From Escherichia phage PhiR30_1: a stretch of DNA of 47,390 nt. Each line of letters opens with the position of its first letter. Position 1 is the first letter of the stretch. Below, piece after piece: positions 42,441-44,237 of this stretch. The DNA is taken from sequence record PV340558. One strand, written 5' to 3'. A model generated the notes under the pieces. It was not told the origin of the DNA. It saw only the letters and a program-made list of their open reading frames with translations, and made no database searches. A program made the translations under genes and the position numbers.

Positions 42441-43024
42441 TGGCATTCAGAATGAGTGAACAAGCACGGACCATAAAAATTTATAATCTGCTGGCCGGAA
42501 CTAATGAATTTATTGGTGAAGGTGATGCATATATTCCGCCTCATACAGGTCTGCCAGCAAACAGTACCGATATTGCACCACCAGATATTCCTGCTGGCTT
42601 TGTGGCTGTTTTCAACAGTGATGAGGCATCGTGGCATCTCGTTGAAGACCATCGGGGTAAAACGGTTTATGACGTAGCGTCAGGGGACGAGTTATTTATT
42701 TCTGAACTCGGTCCGTTACCGGAAAATGTTACCTGGTTATCGCCGGAAGGGGAGTTTCAGAAGTGGAACGGCACAGCCTGGGTGAAAGATGCAGAAGCAG
42801 AAAAACTGTTCCGGATCCGAGAGGCGGAAGAAATAAAAAACAGCCTGATGCAGGTAGCCAGTGAGCATATTGCGCCACTTCAGGATGCTGTAGATCTGGA
42901 AATCGCAACGGAGGAAGAAACCTCATTGCTGGAAGCCTGGAAAAAGTATCGGGTGTTGCTGAACCGTGTTGATACATCAACTGCACCTGATATTGAGTGG
43001 CCTACGAACCCTGTCAGGGAGTAA
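42440..43024 (+). CDS. tfa: Tail fiber assembly protein
   Basis: 194 aa, lambda Tfa-like; TAATG overlap with the stf end. Confidence 0.9.
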
Positions 43025-43035
43025 TCATTGGGATT

Positions 43036-43068
43036 ATGCCGCAGCACGTCTTAAGCAAGAACGTGCTG
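43036..43068 (+). terminator. Candidate terminator after tfa
   Basis: CCGCAGCACG-loop-CGTGCTGCGG hairpin, T-run about 10 nt downstream. Confidence 0.35.
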
Positions 43069-43078
43069 CGGTTGGATG

Positions 43079-43747
43079 CTATTTTTTCCCTGAAGCGGAA
43101 AAAATTACTACAGTACCTTGAACCTTGGTTTTAACATTCTCGAAATGCTCTGAGAGTATATGTGTTAAGCCTTCTTCGGAATCTTTTGTGTTTGAAAAGA
43201 TGCCTTTCTGATTGTAAATGCGCATCAGTTTTTGACCGAAGCTATTGTGCACAACTCCATCGCCAAGAATTGTGGCTCCGTATAGAGTTCCATCGTCAGT
43301 TAAGGCCTGCGCCGCATTGCGTATTACACAGCTTTTTGTAGATATATTTCCAGGCAGGCAGTGAAGAAGGTAAAACATGGAAATGGAATCAAATTGACCA
43401 TGTAACGCCGCGGGATAAGGTTCAAAAACATCATGGCTAATTTTATGTTTAATTTTTGATTCCCCAGCCCTTGTAGATGCCGCGTTCAGGCTAGCTTCGT
43501 TCAAATCCATTAAAGATATCAGACTACTCTCAGGTACGTGAGTAAGGTAAAACCCAGTTCCAACACCAATATCCAGATGGTTGTTACCTAAATGTTCCAG
43601 AAAGTGTGGAAGAAGGTGTTCCTTTGTAGGACATCCCCATGCAAGCCGATTTGATACTCCCAAAACCCACCAGTCATAAAGCTTTAGGGTAAGTGGTGTG
43701 TAAATTTTAGCCCCATCATCTGTGTTTTTTTTCATTAATTTCACCAT
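43079..43747 (-). CDS. ybcY: Class I SAM-dependent methyltransferase (YbcY-like), intact
   Basis: 222 aa with motif I LDIGVGTGFY; AT-rich; antisense between tfa and the tfa remnant as in DLP12. Confidence 0.7.
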   Translation of the reverse strand: MVKLMKKNTDDGAKIYTPLTLKLYDWWVLGVSNRLAWGCPTKEHLLPHFLEHLGNNHLDIGVGTGFYLTHVPESSLISLMDLNEASLNAASTRAGESKIKHKISHDVFEPYPAALHGQFDSISMFYLLHCLPGNISTKSCVIRNAAQALTDDGTLYGATILGDGVVHNSFGQKLMRIYNQKGIFSNTKDSEEGLTHILSEHFENVKTKVQGTVVIFSASGKK

Positions 43748-43803
43748 GTTATAGTTTTATTTGTGAATTAAATCAATTATGGCGATGAATTACAAGGGGT
43801 TAA

Positions 43804-44109
43804 ATGCTGCCGCAGCATAGCGATATTGAAATAGCCTGGTATGCTTCGATACAACAGGAGCCGAATGGCTGGAAGACCGTCACCACACAGTTCTACATCC
43901 AGGAATTCAGTGAGTATATTGCGCCACTGCAGGATGCTGTAGATCTGGAAATCGCAACGGAGGAAGAAAGATCGTTGCTGGAGGCATGGAATAAATATCG
44001 GGTATTGTTGAATCGAGTTGATACATCAGTAGCTCTGGGTATGAAGCTGTTTGTAACTCATGTTACAGTAACAGTCATTACTATCTCGAAGGTGCAAAAT
44101 GTATATTGA
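43804..44109 (+). pseudogene. tfaX: tfa 3' remnant (TfaX-like)
   Basis: Internal [40 protein letters not shown] duplicates the tfa C-terminal region; no tfa N-terminus. Confidence 0.7.
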
Positions 44110-44237
44110 TTTGATATTTTATAAATTTACTTCGAATCTGGCACGTCAACTTTTGATTAAAGTAATATCAGTTTTCGGCGAAAAAAGGACCGTGTACATG
44201 AGACGATTTCATACAATAATAACAAAAATATGAATAT

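Follow-up and report, generated by a model that had tools for sequence, protein, structure and literature searches.

A tfa 3'-end repeat on either side of a ybcY-family methyltransferase gene in Escherichia phage PhiR30_1

Gene content and the direct repeat

The window analysed here is the whole 47,390-nt stretch of Escherichia phage PhiR30_1 (sequence record PV340558). Towards its right-hand end a complete tail fibre assembly gene (tfa) is followed by an antisense methyltransferase gene, a fragment of a second tfa and two further cargo genes, arranged as follows:

42440–43024, plus strand: complete tail fibre assembly gene tfa, 194 aa (open reading frame; Pfam Caudo_TAP, E = 1.6e-44)
42859–42979, plus strand: repeat copy 1, the conserved 3' core of tfa (repeat search, alignment)
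43038–43072, no strand assigned: strong hairpin where tfa and the methyltransferase gene converge (RNA fold of 43025–43095)
43079–43747, minus strand: intact class I SAM-dependent methyltransferase, an orthologue of ybcY (open reading frame, Pfam)
43748–43803, minus strand: promoter-like region of the methyltransferase gene (motif scan)
43804–43896, no strand assigned: spacer travelling with the methyltransferase (near-identical in all contexts compared)
43897–44028, plus strand: repeat copy 2, a non-functional tfa 3' relic, equivalent to tfaX (partial Caudo_TAP match)
44029–44292, no strand assigned: junction with the hydrolase block; the terminator of the hydrolase lies here, at 44237–44272 on the minus strand (terminator scan; ST131 comparison)
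44293–45777, minus strand: TAP-like alpha/beta hydrolase cargo gene (Pfam Abhydrolase_1 and Abhydrolase_4; annotation)
45964–46917, minus strand: ompT, the cargo gene nearest the prophage end (annotated at the identical locus)

The left tfa gene matches Caudo_TAP (PF02413) over its full length (151.6 bits against a cut-off of 22.1; profile positions 1–130 of 131), ends in its own stop codon, and has the annotation 'tail fiber assembly protein' in EH41, whose locus is identical. Upstream, stf shows two apparent frameshifts, at the G-runs 40444–40448 and 42191–42196. Downstream of tfa, the interval 43025–43095 folds stably as RNA on the plus strand (−28.6 kcal/mol, z = −4.4) and on the minus strand (−25.4 kcal/mol, z = −4.2), and the hairpin at 43038–43072 is probably a terminator shared by tfa and the methyltransferase gene; a simple terminator scan did not call it, its loop being too long for the scan and no T-run following immediately. 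The b region of phage lambda is laid out in the same way: homology to lambda extends 51 nt beyond the stop codon of its tfa (orf-194), with the tfa 3' end and these 51 nt kept at 84% identity, and the gene that comes next, ea47, the first of the b region, is likewise antisense and convergent with tfa. Lambda differs in carrying ea47, ea31 and ea59 instead of the methyltransferase, and in having no second tfa fragment. Since the left tfa is complete, with its stop codon and a lambda-type hairpin, the methyltransferase gene occupies the normal cargo slot after tfa and does not interrupt it.

A repeat search of the window detected a direct repeat in two copies, 42848–42979 and 43897–44028 (132 nt, 87% ungapped identity), with no third copy in the window. 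Its homology core, 42859–42979 against 43908–44028, is identical at 108 of 121 positions (89%) and contains a perfect 40-nt block (42881–42920 = 43930–43969); at least 108 matches in 121 are expected by chance at ~2e-50 per pair, against ~1.25e7 position pairs in 5 kb. The tfa reading frame holds in both copies, and of 12 differing codons nine are synonymous and three non-synonymous. The initial annotation of this DNA had described a direct repeat of about 120 bp from the tfa 3' end, at about 85% identity, bracketing an antisense, AT-rich methyltransferase gene; our analysis agrees on the repeat, on the position of the gene between its copies and on composition, the methyltransferase having a G+C content of ~41% against 47–49% in tfa.

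Copy 2 covers only profile positions 75–121 of the 131 in Caudo_TAP (47 positions), and in EH41 it is a partial pseudogene according to PGAP. A TGA interrupts its frame in K-12; in NCTC86 and phage 2G7b a deletion of 7 bp does so. After a shared, near-identical proximal 77 nt, its distal end occurs in three versions, those of the window, K-12 and ST131: between K-12 and the window the first 76 of 77 positions are identical and then 30 of 44, whilst the ST131 copy runs on as tfa beyond 44028, where the window switches to unrelated sequence, and reaches the tfa end and hairpin (42/45 identical to copy 1). This copy, in an ST131 prophage, is the longest (216 nt, 91% identical to copy 1), and as it also includes the tfa end and hairpin, the structure is that of a 'tfa 3' end plus hairpin' duplicated around the cargo. 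Judged from its sequence, copy 2 is a decaying gene fragment and no functional gene.

The spacer between copy 2 and the promoter-like region diverges in a single context, FDAARGOS_1253, from ~43833. On the plus strand it opens a 101-aa frame that continues into copy 2. The N-terminal 35 aa of this frame match phrog_3893 (E = 3.9e-7); they have no Pfam family, and in phage Ayreon the frame stops after 33 aa, and we set them aside as coding sequence and treat the stretch as non-coding spacer. A partial 'DinI family' gene, placed by PGAP at 43822–43902 on the minus strand in some strains, was also rejected, having no Pfam match and no tblastn similarity to the DinI of PhiR49_2.

Relatives of the locus and mosaic breakpoints

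The arrangement is already known, being annotated in K-12 and in thousands of RefSeq E. coli genomes. The block 43025–43900 is present at ≥80% coverage at 4957 places in 3798 of 5426 complete E. coli genomes, with at most four places per genome, and also in 13 phage records; its carriers are annotated with an intact methyltransferase and a partial tfa pseudogene. The K-12 prophage DLP12 lies in the same integration region, has the same repeat and spacer, and shares about 98–99% nucleotide identity with the window over 42586–44003. Its order of tfaD, ybcY (pseudogene) and tfaX, given in the initial annotation, is confirmed, and its full cargo order continues with appY and ompT. Unlike the window, DLP12 has lost the upstream tail genes and the 5' end of tfaD, and carries appY in the position of the alpha/beta hydrolase; in K-12 tfaX has the TGA and a different distal allele from 43985 onward, and K-12 ybcY is broken by a 2-bp deletion in an A-run at window 43727–43734, which removes the probable start codon.

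The functional lambdoid phages 2G7b, ev243, Turner, Kati, PhiR26_1 and PhiR49_1 carry the block of methyltransferase, 'tfa relic, hydrolase and ompT at 99% identity, placed between the tail fibre genes and int, with tail-fibre modules that differ. In 2G7b and PhiR49_1, unlike the window, tfa is reduced to a stub of only 120 bp, from the equivalent of 42905. PhiR49_2 is 100% identical over 42905–43078 and then has dinI in place of the methyltransferase, which sets the edge of the cassette at 43078/43079. Other genes have entered close to this edge: in phage Turner an invertase module is inserted between 43002 and 43039, that is, between tfa and the methyltransferase, and in the O157 strain F1273 genes for a Mn-catalase and a ferritin are inserted between 43003 and 43033.

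In a survey of ~15 loci and sampled rows out of the 4957 places, left mosaic breakpoints in other genomes fell at 42859, 42879, 42905, 42908 and 42927, and mosaic breakpoints lie within both tfa copies. This clustering in the tfa 3' end may reflect tolerated junctions, not favoured recombination. Loss of the methyltransferase was seen only in phage Ayreon, by an internal deletion of 43115–43773. A synthetic query for the product of repeat-mediated deletion of the 1049-bp unit (the 5' portion of tfa joined to copy 2 and to what follows it in the window), which tests loss with the window's own flanks and not with other downstream cargo, was covered to ≥80% at no place in the 5426 genomes.

The methyltransferase and its possible role

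The open reading frame at 43079–43747 is open over 222 aa, with LDIGVGTGFY at residues 58–67. It matches Methyltransf_12/23/25/11 in Pfam and has the GxGxG of motif I, the acidic residue ending strand 2 and the Rossmann-like seven-strand fold of class I SAM methyltransferases. As its homologues are mostly ~218 aa long and the PHROG profile starts at residue 5, the true start is probably the ATG at 43735, giving a protein of 218 aa; the frame is intact, as first annotated, whilst the 222 aa then assigned to it are probably too many. It is unbroken in seven of seven non-K-12 contexts, heavily degraded remnants such as FDAARGOS_1253 included.

Two candidate promoters are predicted upstream of the gene, TTGATT-17-TATAAC at 43776–43748 on the minus strand and TTAACC-16-CATAAT at 43803–43776. 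The first of these motifs is the one given for ybcY by Shimada et al. (PMC3946193), who report that the RpoD holoenzyme binds the K-12 spacer in vitro, by SELEX, and mark the site H-NS. The methyltransferase is probably transcribed from its own sigma-70 promoter, with transcription ending at the shared hairpin. In its arrangement it is like the morons of lambdoid phages, a concept reportedly due to Juhala and Hendrix: a supernumerary gene, found in some close relatives and missing from others, that lies between conserved phage modules, with a lower G+C content and with promoter-like and terminator-like signals of its own, predicted in this case. At this slot PhiR49_2 has dinI and lambda has ea47, and Ayreon is without the open reading frame. 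The earlier designation of the gene as cargo is borne out by such presence and absence among homologous phage sequences, and by its place after tfa.

Its top 50–60 structural neighbours are, a few tRNA and mRNA-cap methyltransferases apart, nearly all enzymes that methylate small molecules or lipids. No DNA methyltransferase occurs among these neighbours or among the Pfam, NCBIfam and PHROGs matches, and a phage anti-restriction DNA methyltransferase was rejected on the grounds that no such family or structure was matched; a role in defence was likewise rejected, the PADLOC match being negligible (mad2, E = 0.0035). The small-molecule and lipid class I enzymes compared, a bacterial PE N-methyltransferase (8ys9), JHAMT (7ec0), a phosphoethanolamine methyltransferase (3uj7), DhpI (3ou2) and NodS (3ofj), share 12–21% sequence identity with it in a flat ranking from which no substrate class stands out; PE and phosphoethanolamine N-methyltransferases are among the top Foldseek neighbours. 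Single-sequence and profile searches of the PDB gave flat lists of generic class I methyltransferases (best profile E-value 1.9e-6) and no close solved or characterised relative, and the NCBIfam matches were far under their cut-offs. The ybcY family has features of its own, a conserved N-terminal YD..VL..SN...W.C segment and an LLHCLPG motif, and Tyr24 and His129 are invariant, possible counterparts of the catalytic Tyr/His of PE and phosphoethanolamine N-methyltransferases. Chromosomal relatives in Salmonella and Enterobacter (56–65% identity) are stand-alone genes in unrelated neighbourhoods and gave no operon clue. In the literature we found ybcY and tfaX only in gene lists, in a SELEX table of promoters and where the surroundings of ompT are described, and no functional study.

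The methyltransferase most likely acts on a small molecule or lipid to the benefit of the lysogen; the benefit to the host is suggested by the retained, intact open reading frame.

As an observation that touches on lysogenic conversion, the gene is kept intact in most E. coli, including otherwise degraded prophage remnants.

Origin of the repeats

We consider it likely that the locus, in the cargo region (equivalent to the lambda 'b region') of a lambdoid prophage integrated at the DLP12 site, is a mosaic joint. The complete tfa and its hairpin close the late operon, with the antisense ybcY-family methyltransferase as cargo directly after, and the dead relic tfaX would come from a second tfa gene, having been joined to the upstream spacer of the methyltransferase when two lambdoid genomes crossed over illegitimately or unequally. 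The unit of tfa 3' end, hairpin, methyltransferase, spacer and 'tfa relic would then have spread among E. coli prophages, its flanks being reshuffled by recombination with other phages at breakpoints inside the conserved tfa 3' sequence; tail-fibre modules upstream now differ, and the downstream cargo is appY, the alpha/beta hydrolase with ompT, or just ompT. We regard the repeats as scars that may also serve as homology anchors, and not as a dedicated switch. Copy 2 may derive from an independent tfa allele. The search for its donor found no phage tfa closer to it than copy 1 (best other phage tfa 88%, against ~90% for copy 1), and since no tfa allele is closer, an old in-situ duplication may alternatively be its source; the codon-position skew of the differences between the copies (P = 0.17 under a mixed model) does not discriminate between the two origins.

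The initial annotation inferred that the cassette was inserted by recombination within tfa and that the repeats may allow its exchange or loss. We think such a model, in which insertion into a single tfa gene duplicated ~120 bp of target and the repeats now mediate exchange or excision, unlikely. The cargo is indeed flanked by direct repeats, but nothing is missing from the left tfa, which keeps its stop codon and a lambda-type hairpin, and the longest copy 2 also has the tfa end and hairpin. None of the phage tfa genes sampled is nearer to copy 2 than copy 1 is, yet the two copies diverge by 11–13%, whereas the methyltransferase module diverges by ~0–4% among E. coli contexts. The perfect 40-nt block exceeds the ~25–30 bp of identity generally needed for RecA- or Red-type recombination, but the deletion product is absent from the 5426 genomes, and the sole loss seen, in Ayreon, is internal. 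The locus has neither a transposase nor an integrase site, and no short duplication of a target. Nor does it resemble a mobile cassette of the IS, transposon or integron type: there is no recombinase gene between stf and ompT, and the flanking repeats are 121–216 nt long and only 87–91% identical, with no short identical target duplication. What stands of this proposal is recombination involving tfa sequence, not insertion within tfa; exchange holds only as loose phage mosaicism, with breakpoints inside both copies, and loss through the repeats runs counter to the genomes surveyed.

Quite improbable, too, is a stronger reading in which the ybcY-family methyltransferase is a genuine lysogenic-conversion enzyme, which could methylate a metabolite of the host or the head group of a membrane lipid, and, separately, the tfa 3' end with its hairpin is a true recombination linker for the trade in lambdoid cargo. 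We give hardly any credence to the 101-aa open reading frame at 43804–44109, the TfaX equivalent, as a functional small protein, such as a truncated chaperone, divergent from the methyltransferase: the frame is open but has the TGA in K-12 and the 7-bp deletion in NCTC86 and 2G7b, it has a PHROG family of its own (phrog_2341) but retains 47 of the 131 Caudo_TAP positions and ends differently in the window, K-12 and ST131, and whilst K-12 has an annotated protein TfaX and a divergent promoter predicted at its spacer, PGAP calls a pseudogene. A tail-fibre switching system of the Gin, Cin or Pin type, with the second tfa segment as an alternative cassette, is very unlikely, for although phage Turner and an ST131 prophage have an invertase and an inverted second tfa at the same spot, the repeats of the window are direct and not inverted, the stretch from stf to ompT has no invertase, and copy 2 is in decay and lacks a fibre gene to pair with.

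The locus, best read as a mosaic joint, is a textbook example of lambdoid mosaicism and minor as a discovery, although ~70% of E. coli genomes carry the methyltransferase. It shows how old recombination joints are marked by gene relics, and how the slot after tfa gathers cargo, from the methyltransferase and dinI to the Mn-catalase/ferritin set, the invertase module and lambda ea47. At its far end ompT, which also lies inside the genomes of 2G7b, Turner and PhiR49_1, travels together with its neighbours on these phage genomes, all deposited as complete.

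Prophage setting and the K-12 counterpart

The window is a lambdoid prophage integrated at the DLP12 site, DLP12 being the cryptic prophage of E. coli K-12, and its genes can largely be read from strain EH41, which carries a 100%-identical locus and in which the chromosomal genes envY, ybcH and nfrA come after ompT.

Features of the PhiR30_1 window
41-1204, integrase-sized ORF matching the annotated integrases of phages 2G7b and Turner
Head and tail genes, J and lom (EH41 annotation)
39047-42440, side tail fibre gene, stf (EH41 annotation)
42440-43024, tail fibre assembly gene, tfa (EH41 annotation)
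43079-43747, minus strand, methyltransferase (EH41 annotation and ORF)
Next in order after the methyltransferase, partial tfa pseudogene (EH41 annotation)
44293-45777, minus strand, alpha/beta hydrolase (EH41 annotation)
45964-46917, minus strand, ompT (EH41 annotation)

Between window positions 42586 and 44003, K-12 MG1655 shows ~98% identity. Its annotated order is tfaD, ybcY (pseudogene), tfaX, appY, ompT, the first three as the initial annotation had them; ybcY has lost 2 bp in an A-run (window 43727-43734). Two 1-nt deletions in G homopolymer runs (40444-40448 and 42191-42196) break stf into three ORFs, whilst that of EH41 is intact (1131 aa) and otherwise identical; the deletions are either genuine slippage mutations, for which stf of lambda PaPa is a precedent, or homopolymer sequencing errors. 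The hydrolase, which occupies the K-12 appY position, is a TAP-like protein of 494 aa with an N-terminal signal-like sequence; its matches include C3a206 (E=1.2e-55), a candidate-defence model of PADLOC, and phrog_20134 (unknown function). The block that runs from the methyltransferase through the tfa relic and hydrolase to ompT (window 43039-47386) also occurs, with the tail fibre genes on one side and int on the other, in 2G7b, Turner and PhiR49_1, phage genomes deposited as complete, thus ompT travels on complete lambdoid phages, beyond the cryptic DLP12.

The direct repeat and the cargo slot after tfa

A repeat search of the window recovered two direct copies of 132 nt, copy 1 in tfa (42848-42979) and copy 2 downstream of the methyltransferase (43897-44028), at 87% ungapped identity, with no third copy in the 47 kb searched. 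Read base by base, the homology core begins at 42859/43908 and bears out the repeat first noticed by eye, with 108 of 121 positions identical in direct orientation (89%), including a perfect 40-nt block (42881-42920 and 43930-43969). At least 108 of 121 matches would arise with a probability of ~2e-50 per pair, there being ~1.25e7 position pairs in 5 kb, and chance is ruled out. The antisense methyltransferase between the copies is, as first described, uninterrupted over 222 codons (43079-43747, minus strand, with LDIGVGTGFY) and AT-rich (G+C ~41% vs. 47–49% in tfa).

Copy 2 is a relic: the Caudo_TAP profile aligns there over positions 75–121 of 131 only, and the surrounding 101-aa ORF (43804-44109) is not conserved, being interrupted by a TGA in K-12 and by a 7-bp deletion in NCTC86 and 2G7b. 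Its proximal 77 nt are common to all lineages compared, whilst the distal end is lineage-specific. K-12 matches the window at 76 of 77 positions, then at 30 of 44 from 43985, and goes on as a third tfa allele, with appY after it; an ST131 prophage at the trp site matches at 77 of 77 and 43 of 44, and extends through the natural tfa end and hairpin (42 of 45 identical to copy 1), giving a repeat of 216 nt at 91% identity. What was first duplicated therefore comprised at least the tfa 3′ end plus hairpin. In the window, unrelated sequence begins at 44029 and leads into the hydrolase block, and the right side of the duplicated unit has been replaced more than once. A partial 'DinI family protein' annotated by PGAP in some strains (43822-43902, minus strand) has no Pfam match and no likeness to real prophage DinI, and looks spurious; the opposite strand matches phrog_3893, a family of unknown function that may itself consist of chance ORFs.

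Caudo_TAP (151.6 bits) shows the left tfa to be full length, and a strong hairpin comes after it at ~43038-43072 (−28.6 kcal/mol on one strand and −25.4 on the other, z ~−4.3). Phage lambda shares the tfa 3′ end and 51 nt past the orf-194 stop at 84% identity, and antisense ea47 comes next there. PhiR49_2 is 100% identical over 42905-43078 and then carries antisense dinI in place of the methyltransferase, which sets the cassette edge at 43078/43079. In Turner an invertase module sits between 43002 and 43039, and O157:H7 strain F1273 (L013:1369-3582) has additional antisense cargo from 43003 to 43033, before the methyltransferase, encoding a manganese catalase, a general stress protein and two ferritin-like proteins; F1273 also carries ISEc8 at the end of the tfa relic. 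Given the complete tfa and hairpin and these alternative contents, the methyltransferase lies where cargo usually sits, beyond the tfa terminator, at the start of the lambda b-region equivalent. The proposal that cargo was inserted within tfa fails here, as the left tfa is complete and the methyltransferase sits 3′ of its hairpin.

The methyltransferase and its distribution

The ORF matches generic class I methyltransferase Pfam families, with LDIGVGTGFY at residues 58–67, and belongs to phrog_2132 (unknown function). Most homologues measure ~218 aa and residue 5 is where the PHROG profile starts, so the true start is probably the second ATG, at 43735 (218 aa), which is exactly the codon destroyed by the K-12 deletion. 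Full-length relatives form ~200 clusters (E<1e-30) and share motif I, D81, an N-terminal YD..VL..SN...W.C segment and an LLHCLPG motif. Homologues in Salmonella enterica (L008) and Enterobacter hormaechei (L010), at 56–65% identity, are stand-alone chromosomal genes with no prophage genes adjacent, which suggests that a host-type gene was captured by phage. An AF2 model (pLDDT 90.3) matched many small-molecule/lipid class I methyltransferases about equally, with no DNA methyltransferase among the matches, and PADLOC returned no meaningful match. Two promoter-like sites lie upstream, TTGATT-17-TATAAC (43776-43748) and TTAACC-16-CATAAT (43803-43776); the former is the motif listed for ybcY of K-12 at a site in the ybcY/tfaX spacer that came from RpoD-holoenzyme SELEX and is marked H-NS (PMC3946193).

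Of 5426 complete E. coli genomes, 3798 carried the block 43025-43900 (coverage at least 80%), at 4957 places and up to four per genome; 13 phage records, among them 2G7b, ev243, Turner, Kati, PhiR26_1 and PhiR49_1, have it too. Strains A12, EH41, EH53 and NCTC9113 are 100% identical over the entire 42400-44300; PGAP labels the pair 'class I SAM-dependent methyltransferase' and partial tail fiber assembly pseudogene. The ORF was unbroken in all seven non-K-12 contexts read, even in FDAARGOS_1253, whose argU remnant is heavily eroded and has the ORF between a tfa fragment and ompT, the setting that PMC6854850 reports for UPEC strains such as CFT073 and UTI89.

Origin, exchange and loss

The copies differ by 11–13%, whilst the module diverges by ~0–4% among E. 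coli contexts, and nine of the 12 codons that differ are synonymous. Both observations fit an origin in which two tfa alleles would have diverged as working genes before being joined when two lambdoid genomes underwent unequal or illegitimate crossover, with the joint at 43897-43908. No tfa donor closer to copy 2 than copy 1 was found among the sampled phages (best 88% vs. ~90%). The copies may instead stem from an old in-situ duplication, with which the codon-position skew is compatible (P=0.17 under a mixed model).

Breakpoints are nested in both copies. Homology on the left starts at 42859 in some genomes, 42879 in phage Ayreon, 42908 in FDAARGOS_1253 and 42927 in ST131, and at 42905 in 2G7b, NCTC86 and PhiR49_1/2, which carry another fibre/chaperone module and have tfa reduced to a 120-bp stub. 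To the right, there is a UPEC-type junction at 43833, the hydrolase version occurs in 888 of the sampled genomes, and most others stop at ~44028-44035, some merely through ISEc8 insertion. This pattern fits recombination, homologous or illegitimate, at the conserved tfa 3′ end, which would exchange the tail-fibre modules on its upstream side and the cargo on its downstream side, though breakpoints may cluster there because such junctions are merely tolerated.

Loss of the cassette between the repeats, also proposed initially, found no counterpart: a synthetic deletion-product query had no place covered at 80% or more in the 5426 genomes. The single loss found, in Ayreon (L004:3855-4203), lacks 43115-43773 and retains the final 11 methyltransferase codons along with the tfa stub, hairpin and upstream spacer, and reads as an internal illegitimate deletion of the cargo gene. 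Of the mechanism first put forward, recombination involving tfa as the builder of the arrangement stands; insertion into tfa does not, and no repeat-mediated loss was found. The arrangement is a known, annotated mosaic scar beside a very common prophage cargo gene.
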